A stretch of DNA of 64,000 nt, from NCBI GenBank assembly GCA_041664245.1, contig JBAYLC010000003.1, positions 394-64,393 of the forward strand, written 5' to 3'. Origin of the DNA: Minisyncoccota bacterium. GTDB lineage: Bacteria > Patescibacteriota > Minisyncoccia > UBA6257 > 2-01-FULL-56-20. Shown here piece by piece: positions 36,211-42,651 of this stretch. The first letter of the stretch is position 1. Each line of letters opens with the position of its first letter. The position numbers and the translations under genes were made by a program. The notes beneath the pieces are model-generated. The model saw nothing but the letters and a program-made list of their open reading frames with translations, ran no database searches and was not told the origin of the DNA.

Positions 36211-36996
36211 ATGAAAAGGAACACTATCAATCACATAGCGAGCGCTGGCATAATTTACCCAAAAAACGACCCAACGAAAATATTTTTAGAGATAAAAGAT
36301 AAAACCTATCCCATTAAAAAATTCCGCCATTCTCTTTGTTTAATCGGCGGAAACTGGATCGGCAAAGCCGCCAAGAAAGATCAAAGTCCATCCTCTACTT
36401 TTAACCGAGAAGTAGAAGAAGAACTCTCCTTCAGGAAACCCTTGGTCAGTTCGACTGAGCTTAAACTTCTAGGAATCAAAAACTCCAAAGACTATCAAAT
36501 AAAAAAACTTAAACACAAACCCGACTCTAAAGATATAAAATCCCTTCGCTCTATAAAAACTATAATAAAAAAATCAAAAAAACCTTGGGGAGATTTTATT
36601 CACACCATCAATCAAAAAGAAATCCTCCTTAGTAACTTCATTGGTCAAAACAAAAACCTCGTTTTCGTAAACTCTTACTGGCTCATCCCGCTCAAGGAAA
36701 AAGATTGGGCAATCCTAGAAAATCTCCAAAAAAAATTCGGCAACTTATCCGAAGAGTCTCAAACCGTCATCATCTCAATAGATGATATTTTAAAAAATAA
36801 AATCCAAATCATCTGGGGTCACGACCACATCCTAAAAAAATTTTTCTTAAAAAATAAGATTAACTCAGCCAATAGATTATCAATTTTTAAAAATATTCAA
36901 AGTAAAAATCTAGGTAAAACCTTAAAGTCCTACAAAGAATACAAAAAGAAATTTACAATTCTCAGGAATCCATTCTTAGATAAAAATCTTGCTTGA
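36211..36996 (+). CDS. Nudix-fold protein with degenerate Nudix box (paralogue A)
   Basis: The GGNWIGK..FNREVEEELSF region is a degenerate REUXEE box. It is paralogous to 37905-38687 across its whole length. Confidence 0.6.
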   Translation: MKRNTINHIASAGIIYPKNDPTKIFLEIKDKTYPIKKFRHSLCLIGGNWIGKAAKKDQSPSSTFNREVEEELSFRKPLVSSTELKLLGIKNSKDYQIKKLKHKPDSKDIKSLRSIKTIIKKSKKPWGDFIHTINQKEILLSNFIGQNKNLVFVNSYWLIPLKEKDWAILENLQKKFGNLSEESQTVIISIDDILKNKIQIIWGHDHILKKFFLKNKINSANRLSIFKNIQSKNLGKTLKSYKEYKKKFTILRNPFLDKNLA

Positions 36997-37061
36997 CATA
37001 ATAGAAAAAACATATATAATTTAGCAAGTTTTATTGACAACCAAAATAAGGAAAGGAAGCC

Positions 37062-37862
37062 ATGAATTCTAAAGAGATAACCGCTCTGCGAAATGTATTA
37101 TCTGCTGCCATTCAAAAAGCTGGAAAAGTAGTTCTGACATCTAGAAAAAGGATCAGCATTGCAAGTACCTCCGCTCACGACTTAGTAACTACTGCCGACC
37201 ACAAGTCGGACGGATTATTAATCGCTACCCTCAAAAATCACTTTCCGAAAATTGCCGTATATTCCGAAGAGTCCGGCGGTGAAAAAAAGTTTCCAAAAGA
37301 ACTATTGGCTATTTTTGATGGAATTGACGGAACTATCAATTACTCCTCGGGGTCTCCTATCTGGGGAATCTCCGGAGCTATTCATGAAAACGGCATACCC
37401 ATCGCAGCCGCAATTTGCCAGCCCGCCCTAAACAAATTCTTCTCTATGACCGCTTATAAAACGGCGACCGTTCATCGCCAGGTCAGCGAAAGGAAATTGT
37501 CCGTTAGTAAGAAACGCGACCTAGAAACAGCTCGTGTTTGCACGGAATGGAAAAAAGGCAATTCGGAAATCGTCTATGATATCCTCCGAATCCTCTTTGA
37601 AAACACAATGTGCCCGCAAATATTTGTTTGCTGCACATTCTCGATAATGTTGGTCGCCGAAGGAATTTTAGATGGCTGCGTAGCATCCGGTCCTACGCCC
37701 GAAGACGTCGCCGCAGCAATTCCTATTCTTGAAGCCGCCGGCGGTCGCGTCACTGATCTCGATGGCAATCCCTACGACATATTTTCGGGAAAGGTAATGG
37801 TCGCTTCGAACGGCCACATCCACAAAGCACTTTTGAAAACTCTCGAATCGATCAGGAAATAA
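37062..37862 (+). CDS. inositol monophosphatase / CysQ (3'(2'),5'-bisphosphate nucleotidase) family phosphatase
   Basis: It has the metal-binding motifs YSEESGG, FDGIDGT and EDVAAA..EAAGG. It has its own TTGACA-N16-TATAAT promoter at ~36997-37025. Confidence 0.75.
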   Translation: MNSKEITALRNVLSAAIQKAGKVVLTSRKRISIASTSAHDLVTTADHKSDGLLIATLKNHFPKIAVYSEESGGEKKFPKELLAIFDGIDGTINYSSGSPIWGISGAIHENGIPIAAAICQPALNKFFSMTAYKTATVHRQVSERKLSVSKKRDLETARVCTEWKKGNSEIVYDILRILFENTMCPQIFVCCTFSIMLVAEGILDGCVASGPTPEDVAAAIPILEAAGGRVTDLDGNPYDIFSGKVMVASNGHIHKALLKTLESIRK

Positions 37863-37904
37863 CTCTAACCCCAACCGTTCCGAAAATGGAACAAGGAGGT
37901 TTAA

Positions 37905-38687
37905 TTGCTTAGAGTCAAAAATTGCGCTTCGGTAGGTATTATCTATCGAGCGAACCAACCGGGACAGGTCTTTCTCGAAACTAAAACTCCCGGTTATCCC
38001 GTGGAAGTTTTCGTGGGAAAGGGATTATTGCTGGGCGGCAACTGGGTTGGAAGCGTTCCGGACAAAAATCCCCTTGAAACTTTTCAGAGGGAAATCAGAG
38101 AAGAACTTTCTTTCGGAAATCCAGCTTTTGACCCCCAAGAAGTTGAATTACTCTTTGGAGAAAAAGCAATTGGGCATCCGTCCGAGGTAAGAAACATTTC
38201 TCCCGACCCCCAAGATGAAATCGAGCTGGAAAAAATAGTATCGACCATCTGTAATGGGGCAAAACCCTTTGGCGTATTTAGTCAAAAAGTTTCAAGGTCT
38301 CTTTTCGACAGCGGAAATCTCAAAAACAGAGCGGACGACCATACCGGCCTAATCTCTGTTTTCGAAGTTCCCCTCGAAGATGATACTTGGCTGCTACTGA
38401 TGAACCTTCAGGAAAAATTCGGAAATCTGTCTAACGAAAGCCAGAGTACCGCAACCTCTGTTTGGGAAATCCTGAAAAGAGGTATTCAGCTTGCGTGGGG
38501 AGAAGATCGCATCCTTATGCAGCACTTTCTGCGACATGGAATAGATGAAGCAGCAGGAATGCGACTAATGCCCTTTATCAATCTAAAGTATTGGGGACCC
38601 GTCGCCGACAATTACGACACCTACCTCCAGTCCATGGAAATCGAGAAGATTCCAAATGGAGTCGAACGACCCAAAATCACATCTTAG
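37905..38687 (+). CDS. Nudix-fold protein with degenerate Nudix box (paralogue B), TTG start
   Basis: The LGGNWVGS..FQREIREELSF region aligns with paralogue A. A Shine-Dalgarno sequence (aaggagg) precedes the TTG start. Confidence 0.6.
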   Translation: MLRVKNCASVGIIYRANQPGQVFLETKTPGYPVEVFVGKGLLLGGNWVGSVPDKNPLETFQREIREELSFGNPAFDPQEVELLFGEKAIGHPSEVRNISPDPQDEIELEKIVSTICNGAKPFGVFSQKVSRSLFDSGNLKNRADDHTGLISVFEVPLEDDTWLLLMNLQEKFGNLSNESQSTATSVWEILKRGIQLAWGEDRILMQHFLRHGIDEAAGMRLMPFINLKYWGPVADNYDTYLQSMEIEKIPNGVERPKITS

Positions 38688-38766
38688 CGGAGACTTGAAT
38701 CACCAATCCAAATCTCCAATAGAGCGAACTGACAATTCGCTCTTTTTTTATCTTGGTTCGCAATAT

Positions 38767-41700
38767 CTATATCTTCCTCACCCCCACCCAAATTTCTTCA
38801 CCGTCTAATTTAGTAATAATCTCCACCAAAAACTTTTCCGATTTTTTATAACTAATTGATTCCGCGCCCACCTCCTTTTTAAATGAATCTTCGTTTTTAT
38901 CAATTATTTTTCGCAAGCTCTCGGGTAACTCCATCATTCCCATGATTCGATCCTCTGCGCTTAGTCCCGCTTTCGCTCTCAAATCCTGAACCAATCTCAC
39001 AAATTCCCTAACCAATCCCTCTTCTTTTAATTCTTTAGTAATATTCAAATCCAACTCCACCTCTCCGGAAATTTTGTCGTTAAATTGTACTTCCTTCACA
39101 TTTACCTCATCGGCTAAAATCCGAATTAACTCCTTATTCTTAATTCCTAAATCTTTATTCTTAATTCTCAAAGCCGCCAAAGGTTGGCGGACTTTGATTC
39201 CCGCCTCCGCCCGCTTAGCTAGCCCCAACGCTGCTAATCTTCTCACTTCTGCCATCTCTTCTAAAATTTTTGATTTTTTTTCTCTTGTTTTTAATTCCGG
39301 CCACCTCTCTAGATGTACTGATATTTCATTCTTGATACCTGATTCCCTATTCTTAATTCCTTCAAAAATAACCTCCGCAAAAAATGGCGTAAACGGTGCA
39401 ATTAATTTCGTTATTTCTTGAATCACGTAACCCAGTGTTTGCGATACCGCTGTATAATCTTTCTCGCTTATTGGTTTCTGTAGCCTTCGCCGCGACCTCC
39501 GAATATACCACCGTGATAAATCATTAATCAATTCCTCGATAACTATTGTCGCCTCTCTTACTTCGTAATTCTCGAGGTGTTTAGTTGTCTTATCAATCGT
39601 TTCATTAAGCCGCTCCGAAATCCATTGATCTAAAATATTTCGTGATTCACGATTTGCTATTTGTGATTTGCCATTAGCATACGTGTAATAAAACAAGAAC
39701 GAATTCCATAAAATCAAATGAAATTTCCGGGAAGTTTTTACAATTTCCGCCTCGTCGAAATTCCGAGGCTCTCCCGCCGGCGCCGCATTATAAAAATACC
39801 ACCTAACTGCATCTATCCCGTATTTCTCAATCATCGTCGCTGGCATAACAATATTTCCTTTTGATTTTGACATTTTCTGGCCAAATTTATCGTTTATAAG
39901 CCCAAGGCAAATAACATTTTTATAAGGTGCTTCAAAACCCAAAAGAGTCGCCACCGCTAAAAGGGTGTAAAACCACCCGCGCGTCTGATCTACTCCCTCA
40001 GAAATATAATCTGCTGGATACTGTAAATCTTTTAATCCTTTATTCTGTTCAAACGGCCAATGCGCCTGCGCTAGTGGCATCGCCCCCGAATCAAACCAAA
40101 CATCGGCAATTTCTTTCACCCTTTTCATTTTTCCGCTGCATTTTTTGCAACCAAAAACCATTTCGTCCGCAAACGGCCGATGTAGATTGATCTCCCCTGT
40201 TCTGTCTCGTGGGTTAAGCTTCAAATCAGTTTTTAAAAAATCTGCTACATTTATAAAAATCCCCTCCTTTTTTCCTATTTCTTGAATCGCTTCTTTTTCT
40301 GTCCATCCCCTCATTATTTGAGCAAACATCCAAATTGGATATTCGTGGCTTACAATCAAAATTCTCTTTCCCTTGTATTTCTTTTCAGTATCTTTAATAA
40401 AATCCCAAAGTCGAGTTCGCAAATCTAAAAGCGACTCTCCTCTCTCCGGTTTCTTCGAAAATTTATCCTCATAAGTTGGAAATTCATCGTGATATTCTTT
40501 TAAAGGTCGGCCCGAAAATTCAGCCACTTGTATCTCCCGAATTCGCTTATCGAAATTTACCTTCTTAATTCCTAAGATTTTTGAGGTAATCTGAGCCGTC
40601 TCTTTTGTCCGCAAAAGATCAGAGGCAAAAATCAATTGAATTTTTTCTTTTTTCAAAACCTGAGCGGTTTTCTCCACCTGTTTTCGGCCTCGATCGGTTA
40701 AGTGAAAGTTCTGATTGCCCGAATCAGCAATCCCCAACATCTGTGTTTCCGATTCTCCATGTCTCATAAATAAATACTCATTATTAGCCTCCCCCATCCT
40801 ATCACTCAATTCATCAAGACTGCCGATTACCTCTTCCTTGCCGCACTTACCACAAATCCAAATCGGCAAAGGCGTTCCCCAATATCTTTCCCGGGAAAAA
40901 TTCCAATCCTTCACCTCTTTTAACCATTCACCAAACCGGCCTTCTTTAATGTGTTTTGGCAGCCAATTTATTTTTTTATTCGCCGCCATCAACTCATTTT
41001 TTACCGCCGTGGTCTTCACAAACCAAGCATCTCGCGCATAATAAAGAAGTGGCGTTTTGCATCGCCAGCAGAATGGATATTCATGAGAATATTTTTCTAT
41101 CTTTAGTAAATTCTCGTTCTTTTCTAAAATACTGAAAATTTTCTTATCCGTTTCGGGATCCTTAACATACATTCCGCTCAAGCCCGACACCTCCTTTATG
41201 AATTTCCCCTGTTCATCAACCGTGTGAAATTGCGACAAACCGGCTTTAGCGCCTAACTTATAATCGTCTTCGCCATACATCACCGCCGTGTGTACCACCC
41301 CCGTTCCATCCGTCGTCGTCACAAAATCCGCCGCGTAAATCTTATAAGAATTCTTATTCTTTAATTTAGAAACATTAAAAAGCGGCTCATAATTCAACCC
41401 AATTAGATCCTTACCCTTGGTTGTTTTTTCAATTTTTCCCCGGACGCCCACCGCCTCAATCCGCTCTTTCGCCACCACAAAAATTTCTCCGCTCTCTGAT
41501 TCAAGCAAAACATAATCAATCTTTTCTCCCACCGCCAAAGCCACATTTCCCGGCAGTGTCCACGGCGTCGTTGTCCACGCCAACACATAAGTTTTGTCGT
41601 TCGTGTACCAGTCTCCAATTTTCTGTTTCGATTTTAATTTGAATCTAACGTAAACCGATTTATCTTCCACCGTCTCGTATCCCTGCGCCACCTCATGAGA

Positions 41701-42267
41701 AGAAAGGCCCGTCCCGCACCGTGTGCACCACAAAATAACCTTGTATCCTTTATACAAAAGCTTCCTCGCCCAAAACTGCTTAATAATCCACCACAATGTT
41801 TCCATATAATCCTTTTCATAAGTGATATATGGATTTTTTAAATCCAGCCAAAACCCCATCCGCTCTGTTAATTGCTCACCCTCTTCTTTGTACTGCCAAA
41901 CCGACTCCTTACACTTCTGATTGAATTTCTCAATTCCATATTCCTCAATCTCTTTTTTTGACTTCAACCCAAGCTTTTTTTCCACTTCAATTTCCACCGG
42001 CAAACCGTGCGTGTCCCAGCCGCTCCGCCGCGGCACATAAAAACCGCGCATAGTTTTATAGCGTAGAATAATATCCTTAAAAGACCGTGCTAAAACATGG
42101 TGGATACCCGGCCGCCCATTCGCCGTTGGCGGTCCCTCATAAAAGGTGAATTTTTTCTTTCCCTTATTTTTTTCGAGTGATTTCTCGAAAATTTTATTTT
42201 TCTTCCAAAACTCCAAAACCTTCTCCTCGGCTTTAGCCAAACTAAAATCTTTAAAATCCGCAAACAT
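38767..42267 (-). CDS. ileS: isoleucine--tRNA ligase with inserted histidine-phosphatase (PGAM-like) domain
   Basis: It has HIGH (PGIHH), the CP1 editing region, a CxxC zinc knuckle and KMSKS. A ~200 aa RHGES histidine-phosphatase domain lies between VIGSLDEL and LHRPF. The start may be 42297. Confidence 0.9.
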   Translation of the reverse strand: MFADFKDFSLAKAEEKVLEFWKKNKIFEKSLEKNKGKKKFTFYEGPPTANGRPGIHHVLARSFKDIILRYKTMRGFYVPRRSGWDTHGLPVEIEVEKKLGLKSKKEIEEYGIEKFNQKCKESVWQYKEEGEQLTERMGFWLDLKNPYITYEKDYMETLWWIIKQFWARKLLYKGYKVILWCTRCGTGLSSHEVAQGYETVEDKSVYVRFKLKSKQKIGDWYTNDKTYVLAWTTTPWTLPGNVALAVGEKIDYVLLESESGEIFVVAKERIEAVGVRGKIEKTTKGKDLIGLNYEPLFNVSKLKNKNSYKIYAADFVTTTDGTGVVHTAVMYGEDDYKLGAKAGLSQFHTVDEQGKFIKEVSGLSGMYVKDPETDKKIFSILEKNENLLKIEKYSHEYPFCWRCKTPLLYYARDAWFVKTTAVKNELMAANKKINWLPKHIKEGRFGEWLKEVKDWNFSRERYWGTPLPIWICGKCGKEEVIGSLDELSDRMGEANNEYLFMRHGESETQMLGIADSGNQNFHLTDRGRKQVEKTAQVLKKEKIQLIFASDLLRTKETAQITSKILGIKKVNFDKRIREIQVAEFSGRPLKEYHDEFPTYEDKFSKKPERGESLLDLRTRLWDFIKDTEKKYKGKRILIVSHEYPIWMFAQIMRGWTEKEAIQEIGKKEGIFINVADFLKTDLKLNPRDRTGEINLHRPFADEMVFGCKKCSGKMKRVKEIADVWFDSGAMPLAQAHWPFEQNKGLKDLQYPADYISEGVDQTRGWFYTLLAVATLLGFEAPYKNVICLGLINDKFGQKMSKSKGNIVMPATMIEKYGIDAVRWYFYNAAPAGEPRNFDEAEIVKTSRKFHLILWNSFLFYYTYANGKSQIANRESRNILDQWISERLNETIDKTTKHLENYEVREATIVIEELINDLSRWYIRRSRRRLQKPISEKDYTAVSQTLGYVIQEITKLIAPFTPFFAEVIFEGIKNRESGIKNEISVHLERWPELKTREKKSKILEEMAEVRRLAALGLAKRAEAGIKVRQPLAALRIKNKDLGIKNKELIRILADEVNVKEVQFNDKISGEVELDLNITKELKEEGLVREFVRLVQDLRAKAGLSAEDRIMGMMELPESLRKIIDKNEDSFKKEVGAESISYKKSEKFLVEIITKLDGEEIWVGVRKI

Positions 42268-42651
42268 AGTATCTATATTCAAGCACAAAAAACACAATCA
42301 GTTCAAATTAGACCGAGCTTCCCTTTCGGTAAAAAATCAATTAAACTAGAGCAAAACAGAAAGATAGCCCCTCCTCTTCTCCACCGAACCGCTCTTCTCT
42401 TCTCAAGGAGCAAACCAGGAGAAACAGACTTCCCGTCACTATCTTTCTGTTCTTTTTTTCGCCTTCCCAGCCGAACTAACTACTTCGGCAGAATAGGCAA
42501 GCAGAGCGCCTCCCCTTCTAATTACCACCAAAATAAACTATTCTTAAAATCAAGAGGCAAGATAGATAAGAACTCAAAAGGGACAGACAGCCAAGCTATA
42601 TCCAATAGGGCAAAACGTTCAACCACCTATCTATCTTGCCCTTTTTATTCT

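Follow-up and report, generated by a model that had tools for sequence, protein, structure and literature searches.

Divergent Nudix-fold paralogues beside an IMPase-family phosphatase gene in Patescibacteria: a possible module for nucleotide-sugar turnover

What do two related proteins of an unnamed family do on either side of a phosphatase gene? This question is raised by a locus of a Minisyncoccota bacterium (contig JBAYLC010000003.1), of which we analyzed a stretch of 64,000 nucleotides, the window. The host is a Patescibacterium, as the initial annotation of the locus had it. Patescibacteria have tiny genomes, and most of their lineage-specific genes have no assigned function. The answer that we tentatively favor is the turnover of nucleotide sugars. 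The annotation called three open reading frames (ORFs) here, and all three are present:

36211..36996, plus strand: gene A, 261 aa, a divergent Nudix-fold protein from the "A clade" of the family, with the box GGNWIGKAAKKDQSPSSTFNREVEEELSF from residue 46.
37062..37862, plus strand: phosphatase gene of the inositol monophosphatase (IMPase) family (PF00459), 266 aa; its metal and catalytic motifs (EESGG, DGIDGT and EDVAAA...EAAGG) are intact.
37905..38687, plus strand: gene B, 260 aa, the second divergent Nudix-fold paralogue, with the box GGNWVGSVPDKNPLETFQREIREELSF from residue 44.

A Patescibacteria-restricted branch of the Nudix fold

A and B are paralogues. They share 35% identity across 249 aligned residues (E=7e-50), and every shared motif quoted in the initial annotation is present. 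A, B and the phosphatase gene are real genes, all under purifying selection, because the ratio of nonsynonymous to synonymous substitution rates (dN/dS) is 0.12 for A, 0.24 for the phosphatase gene and 0.33 for B. The reference for these values is L084, whose proteins are 90-95% identical to those of the window.

The annotation could not put a name to this family of about 260 aa, and neither could our searches. A and B have no sequence match above threshold in Pfam, NCBIfam or the PDB. The Pfam NUDIX model (PF00293) matches neither protein; it is matched by 6 of 23 family relatives, with a best E of 0.025, which is below threshold. The Pfam scan of A returned only a sub-threshold match to DUF4895, of which we found no mention in the searched literature. 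Among PDB sequences, A, B and the family profile found no Nudix protein, only a spurious designed repeat protein and a kinase. Comparing the family with single canonical Nudix neighbors (hhalign) gave no significant match; with one canonical Nudix protein the boxes align in register (E=0.05).

The fold is recognizable nevertheless. AlphaFold models (AF2) of A and B were built from family alignments and are confident for both proteins: the predicted local distance difference test (pLDDT) is 87.2 for A and 91.2 for B, and the predicted template modeling score (pTM) is 0.87 and 0.89. In a Foldseek search of the PDB, the top 50 matches of A are all Nudix-fold proteins, and so are those of B, with probabilities up to 1.00 and E values down to 4e-5. 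Query-normalized TM-scores of the matches reach only 0.3-0.44. Hence both proteins have the alpha/beta/alpha Nudix fold that had been proposed for them. The models indicate one expanded Nudix domain of about 260 aa each, distant from every solved subfamily.

The Nudix box was described as degenerate, with an eroded Gx5E, a preserved REx2EE and SF at its end. All of this is accurate. The canonical box GX5EX7REUXEEXGU occurs in none of 172 distinct family members. A variant, GG-x6-9-D-x8-RE-x2-EE, is found in 142 of the 172, and RE..EE in 148. The individual positions are almost invariant: G44 is kept in 100% of members, D53 in 98%, R62 in 96%, E63 in 92%, E66 in 94% and E67 in 95%. R62, E63, E66 and E67 are present in both A and B. 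The glutamates predicted to bind metal in the Nudix helix, whose fate the annotation had left to be checked, are thus retained in the family. Outside the box, K27, W162, N174, S176, E178 and Y237 are conserved in at least 91% of the members. Substituting D for E and lengthening the box is compatible with activity, as in NUDT16/X29 (GX5DX8REX2EEXGX) and YffH (PMC5389931).

The family is large. An exhaustive profile search yielded 325 clusters at 50% identity, 130 of those below E=1e-30. All named sources of family members are Patescibacteria, except for two contigs with doubtful automated labels. We therefore describe an unnamed branch of the Nudix fold that is seen only in Patescibacteria.

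A and B had been called tandem paralogues with an unusual arrangement. The paralogy stands, and a recent tandem duplication is rejected. A neighbor-joining tree places A among the first copies of other trios and B among single-copy genes from other genomes. Because A and B sit in different clades, the duplication must be old. Compared with the window, the trio of L085 (3129-5597) has a phosphatase that is 90% identical and a paralogue B that is only 66% identical. Hence B evolves markedly faster than its phosphatase partner.

Which Nudix enzymes do A and B resemble most? The fold matches include 3dup, 3qsj, RppH, Ap4A hydrolase and MutT, as well as GDP-mannose mannosyl hydrolase (GDPMH), NUDT9, NUDT16/X29 and NUDT22. 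For A, NUDT9, the NUDT9H domain of TRPM2, NrtR and complexes of NUDT16 with ADP-ribose are among the best. These matches allow a reading in which the Nudix enzyme would cut ADP-ribose or NADP(H), with the IMPase-family enzyme acting as a phosphatase on NADP, a 2'-phospho-nucleotide or a sugar phosphate. The IMPase family does contain NADP phosphatases, and there are weak matches to NF010678. However, the NADH-pyrophosphatase motif SQPWPFPxS occurs in none of the 172 members, the annotated neighborhoods hold no genes of NAD metabolism, and the fusions to cupin domains described below would go unexplained. We consider the processing of ADP-ribose or NAD(P)-derived nucleotides very unlikely.

The phosphatase and its linkage to the family

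The middle gene had been assigned to the IMPase family, and rightly so. It matches PF00459 with E=1.3e-40 and 140 bits against a cut-off of 27, and carries the motifs YSEESGG, FDGIDGT and EDVAAAIPILEAAGG, which cover the EE, DPxDGT-like and WDxAAG-like signatures of the IMPase/FIG superfamily. The best NCBIfam model is HisN (TIGR02067), with 128 bits below a cut-off of 275. The same model comes first, again below cut-off, for the family-linked phosphatases of L011 and L034. Models of CysQ, the type initially suggested, score lower and miss their cut-offs: 71.8 against 228.8 bits for TIGR01331 and 36.8 against 379 bits for NF008182. In the PDB, generic IMPases are the best matches (3e-22), SuhB-type proteins are among the matches, and a bisphosphate nucleotidase reaches only 2e-6. 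Judged by these profiles, the middle gene is a bona fide member of the IMPase family but not an equivalog of CysQ, HisN or SuhB.

These results bear on the reaction that the initial annotation had put forward. In that scheme A and B are Nudix enzymes of the coenzyme A (CoA) pyrophosphatase type that release 3',5'-ADP (pAp), or a similar 3'-phosphorylated nucleotide such as pGp, and a CysQ-like phosphatase dephosphorylates it. A Nudix fold does adjoin an IMPase-family gene, the pairing is conserved, and the top fold matches 3dup and 3qsj are functionally uncharacterized and so compatible with such a role. Yet the CoA pyrophosphatase (NuCoA) motif LLTxR[SA]x3Rx3Gx3FPGG is found upstream of the box in none of the 172 members, and FPGG in only two. 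The phosphatase scores against CysQ are equally unfavorable, as given above. The scheme also leaves the cupin fusions and the sugar-cluster contexts unexplained; fusions and neighborhoods point toward nucleotide-sugar metabolism. Hence the CoA scheme is highly improbable.

Whether the three genes belong together can be read from other genomes. The order A, phosphatase, B, between the genes for tryptophanyl-tRNA synthetase (TrpRS) and a convergent isoleucyl-tRNA synthetase (IleRS), is found in four more genomes (L015, L020, L084 and L085). To count neighbors we scanned genomes and metagenomes and gathered 55 distinct loci. An IMPase-family gene lies at most two genes from a family member in 10 of the 55 and never farther out. 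Counted by ORFs, 10 of 168 within two genes belong to the IMPase family, compared to none of 316 farther away (Fisher p=2e-5, which is indicative only because the loci are not phylogenetically independent). In 7 of the 10 loci, gene coordinates place the Nudix and phosphatase genes in the same direction and closely spaced, in one case with an overlap of 4 nt.

The linkage is not confined to one lineage. Linked loci span Paceibacteria-type, Daviesbacteria, Staskawiczbacteria and Wildermuthbacteria genomes, so the adjacency recurs in distant lineages. The linked phosphatases are of two subtypes, one HisN-like and one like FBPase/IMPase (L025, L049). A survey that started from the phosphatase found its two nearest relatives (90% identity) in trios. 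Next to a relative at 41% are a cupin and an unrelated ORF that carries a Nudix-helix motif. A relative at 37% adjoins a GDPMH-like Nudix gene, and one relative has no Nudix neighbor.

A related case is L081 (6865-8081), where an ORF of 239 aa occupies the slot after the phosphatase gene and is followed by the same cupin. The hidden Markov model of the family does not match this ORF. It has the motif REYEEETGI, a NUDIX match of E=0.15 and no PDB match. It may be an in-place replacement by a different, putative Nudix-like protein.

Housekeeping loci, cupin fusions and sugar clusters

Family members reside in two kinds of context. The first is the order RNase J, TrpRS, family gene, IleRS, with NusA upstream, in about 11 related genomes among the 55 loci. 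The window belongs here, since RNase J, TrpRS and IleRS surround its trio.

From the first context one could conclude that A and B are RNA 5'-end pyrophosphohydrolases or decapping enzymes, similar to RppH or NUDT16, that feed RNase J. The phosphatase would then be a SuhB-like partner or would clear nucleotide by-products. Besides the gene order, kept within one lineage, the presence of RppH, BdRppH, NUDT16 and X29 among the fold matches agrees with such a function, and so do the D-x8-RE-x2-EE spacing, which is the same as in NUDT16/X29, and the SuhB-type PDB matches of the phosphatase. However, RNase J is directly adjacent in none of the 55 loci. The synteny occurs only in related Paceibacteria-type genomes and may therefore be inherited rather than functional, and the RppH models of NCBIfam match neither A nor B. 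An RNA function also fails to explain the fusions to sugar-type cupins and the residence in glycan clusters. We regard it as quite unlikely.

The second context consists of clusters for nucleotide sugars and surface glycans. Epimerases or dehydratases of nucleoside diphosphate (NDP) sugars from the short-chain dehydrogenase/reductase (SDR) family are encoded at most five genes away in 12 of the 55 loci, and DegT or other aminotransferases within the same distance in 5 loci. The clusters contain DegT aminotransferases, a GDP-mannose 4,6-dehydratase, an RmlC-type epimerase, a GHMP kinase, a nucleoside triphosphate (NTP) transferase, a SIS isomerase, a split transketolase, glycosyltransferases, a flippase and genes similar to O-antigen ligases. 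Family members in such clusters come from Daviesbacteria, Staskawiczbacteria, Wildermuthbacteria, Harrisonbacteria and others.

Two loci illustrate this context best. In L034 a single strand encodes, in this order, SIS, methyltransferase, RmlC-type epimerase, SDR, family gene, IMPase, SDR, aldo/keto reductase, split transketolase, GHMP kinase and GT2. L011 contains DegT, SDRs, GHMP kinase, NTP-transferase and a true GDP-mannose 4,6-dehydratase (463 bits). Next comes the IMPase gene, in divergent orientation to the family gene, and after it further SDR and GT4 genes. The Daviesbacteria locus L004 is similar.

Cupins provide a second link to sugars. A small cupin (matching PF14667, Cupin_2 and FdtA) lies downstream of the family gene in L015, L020, L026/L059, L056 and L061. 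Elsewhere a CapF/FdtA-type cupin is fused to the family protein, and this has happened in both orders: the cupin comes first in P0060 and P0071 and last in P0030 and L077. Fused and free-standing cupins are homologous, with 31-47% identity.

Canonical Nudix genes also neighbor the family, in L010, L025 and L066. The small canonical Nudix gene at L010:7287-7745 adjoins a family member, and another at L082:6881-7405 adjoins a relative of the phosphatase. For both, the best model is GDPMH (NF011963, about 1e-12, under the cut-off).

In the clusters of L034 (4832-14516) and L011 (1225-7853), an IMPase-family phosphatase occurs together with genes for SIS, GHMP kinase, NTP-transferase, split transketolase and 4,6-dehydratase/epimerase. 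There is no HAD (GmhB-type) phosphatase among the scanned ORFs of the two loci. They may encode a pathway of the GDP-heptose or 6-deoxyheptose type in which the IMPase replaces GmhB.

A different role for the family follows from this gene content. A and B could be Nudix-fold enzymes that modify or bind nucleotide sugars without hydrolyzing them, similar to EvaA, alongside cupin, SDR and DegT. The phosphatase would be a separate biosynthetic enzyme, for example a stand-in for GmhB that acts on heptose-1,7-bisphosphate. Deoxysugar 2,3-dehydratases do have the Nudix fold, each chain containing two Nudix-like domains (PMC8987622), and family genes adjoin 4,6-dehydratases, DegT aminotransferases and epimerase-type cupins. 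The gene content of L034 and L011 fits as well. However, the 2,3-dehydratase family of Pfam matches neither A nor B in scans that list hits up to E=10, and EvaA does not appear within the top 50 matches by fold. A metal-binding helix (RE-x2-EE) that hardly varies speaks for phosphoryl chemistry. Furthermore, Nudix and phosphatase genes are tightly paired outside sugar clusters too, as in the window. Hence we judge an EvaA-like function unlikely.

Within the window, two candidate expression signals accompany the trio:

36993..37020, plus strand: sigma-70-type promoter, TTGACA-16-TATAAT, matching the consensus at 12 of 12 positions; its function is inferred from the consensus only.
38721..38743, plus strand: terminator-like stem-loop followed by a T run, between B and the convergent IleRS gene; a pattern match only.

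The promoter had been described as near-consensus and is in fact exact. It overlaps the stop codon of A upstream of the phosphatase gene, and no other site in the window matches with one mismatch or fewer. Promoter-like hexamers occur at the same position before the phosphatase gene in L084, L015, L020 and L081. Gene B starts with TTG and has a GGAGG ribosome-binding site upstream.

The neighboring genes have peculiarities of their own. IleRS (38767-42297, minus strand, 1176 aa), which is convergent with B, carries an inserted domain of the histidine-phosphatase superfamily (YLFMRHGESETQ...LIVSHEYPIW). Its orthologues in L001, L007, L081 and L084 are recorded with the order PF00133, PF00300 (His_Phos_1), PF00133, and we found nothing on such an IleRS in the searched literature. 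Between RNase J and TrpRS, the relatives L001 (3843-4223), L081 (4492-4848) and L084 (3753-4127) have a gene for a 23S-rRNA-intervening-sequence protein (PF05635), which is absent from the window. GC skew is negative in all 2-kb bins of the window (1-64000; -0.03 to -0.36), irrespective of gene orientation, and the cumulative skew drops monotonically without a turning point.

A proposed two-step reaction and comparable systems

The explanation that we favor, at somewhat less than an even chance, is that A and B are active Nudix pyrophosphohydrolases on an NDP-sugar and that the phosphatase takes the product to the free sugar. In the first step, the Nudix enzymes would cut the diphosphate of a nucleotide-activated sugar, or of a similar NDP-X envelope precursor, into a nucleoside monophosphate (NMP) and a sugar-1-phosphate. 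In the second, the IMPase-family enzyme would strip the phosphate from the sugar-1-phosphate, leaving free sugar and phosphate. Nucleotide sugars would thereby be de-activated, recycled or edited. The two paralogues may differ in substrate or combine into a heterodimer.

The analysis shows the fold, the metal-binding residues that are kept, how far the family extends, the conserved linkage of Nudix and IMPase genes, the cupin fusions and the sugar-cluster contexts. We infer that the family is hydrolytic, which class of substrate it takes, in which order the two steps run and what they do for the cell. That the metal-binding helix is retained speaks for hydrolysis of a diphosphate. The cupin fusions and the sugar clusters argue for a nucleotide-activated sugar as the substrate. 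The products of Nudix NDP-sugar diphosphatases are NMP and sugar-1-phosphate (PMC7729866; PMC5389931). Since the phosphatase is a conserved partner and often shares what looks like an operon, removing the phosphate from that sugar-1-phosphate would be the natural second step.

Several points speak against this explanation. Among the fold matches, sugar-specific Nudix enzymes are not preferred over RppH, NUDT16, NUDT9 or MutT. About a fifth of the loci lie in the housekeeping context, and many others have unrelated neighbors. We searched the window for a cupin or any gene of sugar-nucleotide metabolism or of a sugar cluster and found none. In the heptose-like clusters of L011 and L034, the phosphatase could be a biosynthetic bisphosphate phosphatase that replaces GmhB, and the Nudix protein would then be left without an explanation. 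Finally, the predicted activity of the family is read from fold, residues and gene context, not from enzymology.

A more specific version of the two-step reaction is possible but doubtful. In this version the Nudix-IMPase module, together with the cupin in loci that have one, would be a previously undescribed, Patescibacteria-specific two-enzyme route from NDP-sugar to NMP, free sugar and phosphate. Its purpose would be to provide envelope glycans with a rare sugar in free form, or to recover nucleotides from nucleotide sugars that come from the host where de novo nucleotide synthesis is lacking, with A and B as a heterodimeric or dual-specificity pair. In the searched literature we found neither the A/B family nor a module of Nudix, IMPase and cupin described. 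Searches that joined Nudix proteins to IMPase and nucleotide sugars, or to Patescibacteria, returned nothing specific, and those for a link to sugar-1-phosphate or cupins only general reviews.

The family thus gains a fold, a probable catalytic center and a reaction that can be tested, and the IMPase-family phosphatase and the sugar-type cupin are recognized as its two conserved partners. If NDP-sugars are indeed taken to free sugars, a Nudix-based route of nucleotide-sugar turnover or salvage is added to what episymbiotic bacteria can do, and a new Nudix subfamily model for annotation is justified. If the two-step scheme fails, the family is an ordinary divergent housecleaning Nudix.

How does the module compare with known systems? 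EvaA-type NDP-hexose 2,3-dehydratases share the Nudix fold, and their two Nudix units loosely echo the A/B pair. However, these units are fused in one chain, whereas A and B are each modeled as a single domain of about 260 aa, and neither Pfam nor the fold search connects them. NUDT16/X29 and RppH are among the fold matches, and the box variant D-x8-RE-x2-EE is shared. In contrast to these enzymes, A and B show no membership at the sequence level, and the context of the family is sugar-related except in the one RNase J-TrpRS lineage.

GDPMH (NudD/WcaH/Gmm) of colanic-acid and O-antigen clusters is closer in context. It has the Nudix fold, is encoded within GDP-sugar and glycan clusters and appears among the fold matches, and GDPMH-like genes adjoin family members or the phosphatase orthologue. 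However, GDPMH has the box RLx2AE, in which two glutamates are lost, and cleaves at carbon (PMC5389931), whereas the family keeps RE-x2-EE. The GDPMH-type box GX5EX7RLX2AEXGU is found in none of the 172 members, and NF011963 matches neither A nor B.

The Nudix NDP-sugar diphosphatases, such as the GDP-mannose diphosphatase YffH/NudK of E. coli, NUDT14 and NUDT22, are alike in fold, in the RE-x2-EE helix and in their association with nucleotide-sugar genes. YffH also has the D-for-E substitution seen in the box of the family. The products expected from A and B would be the same, NMP and sugar-1-phosphate. The differences lie in the sequence. There is no significant similarity, with only sub-threshold matches to the Pfam NUDIX model. 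The family has about 260 aa with extra helices, a lengthened loop from the G to the acidic residue and a box that ends in SF instead of GU, as well as additional invariant residues (K27, W162, N174-L-S-x-E178 and Y237).

For the two steps together, a parallel exists in plants. In ascorbate synthesis, VTC2/VTC5 convert GDP-L-galactose to L-galactose 1-phosphate, and VTC4 converts this to L-galactose. VTC2 is a phosphorylase of the HIT family and not a Nudix enzyme, and nothing ties L-galactose or ascorbate to the A/B loci. The likeness is an analogy only and lies in the order of events: a nucleotide sugar becomes a sugar-1-phosphate, from which an IMPase-family phosphatase releases the free sugar.

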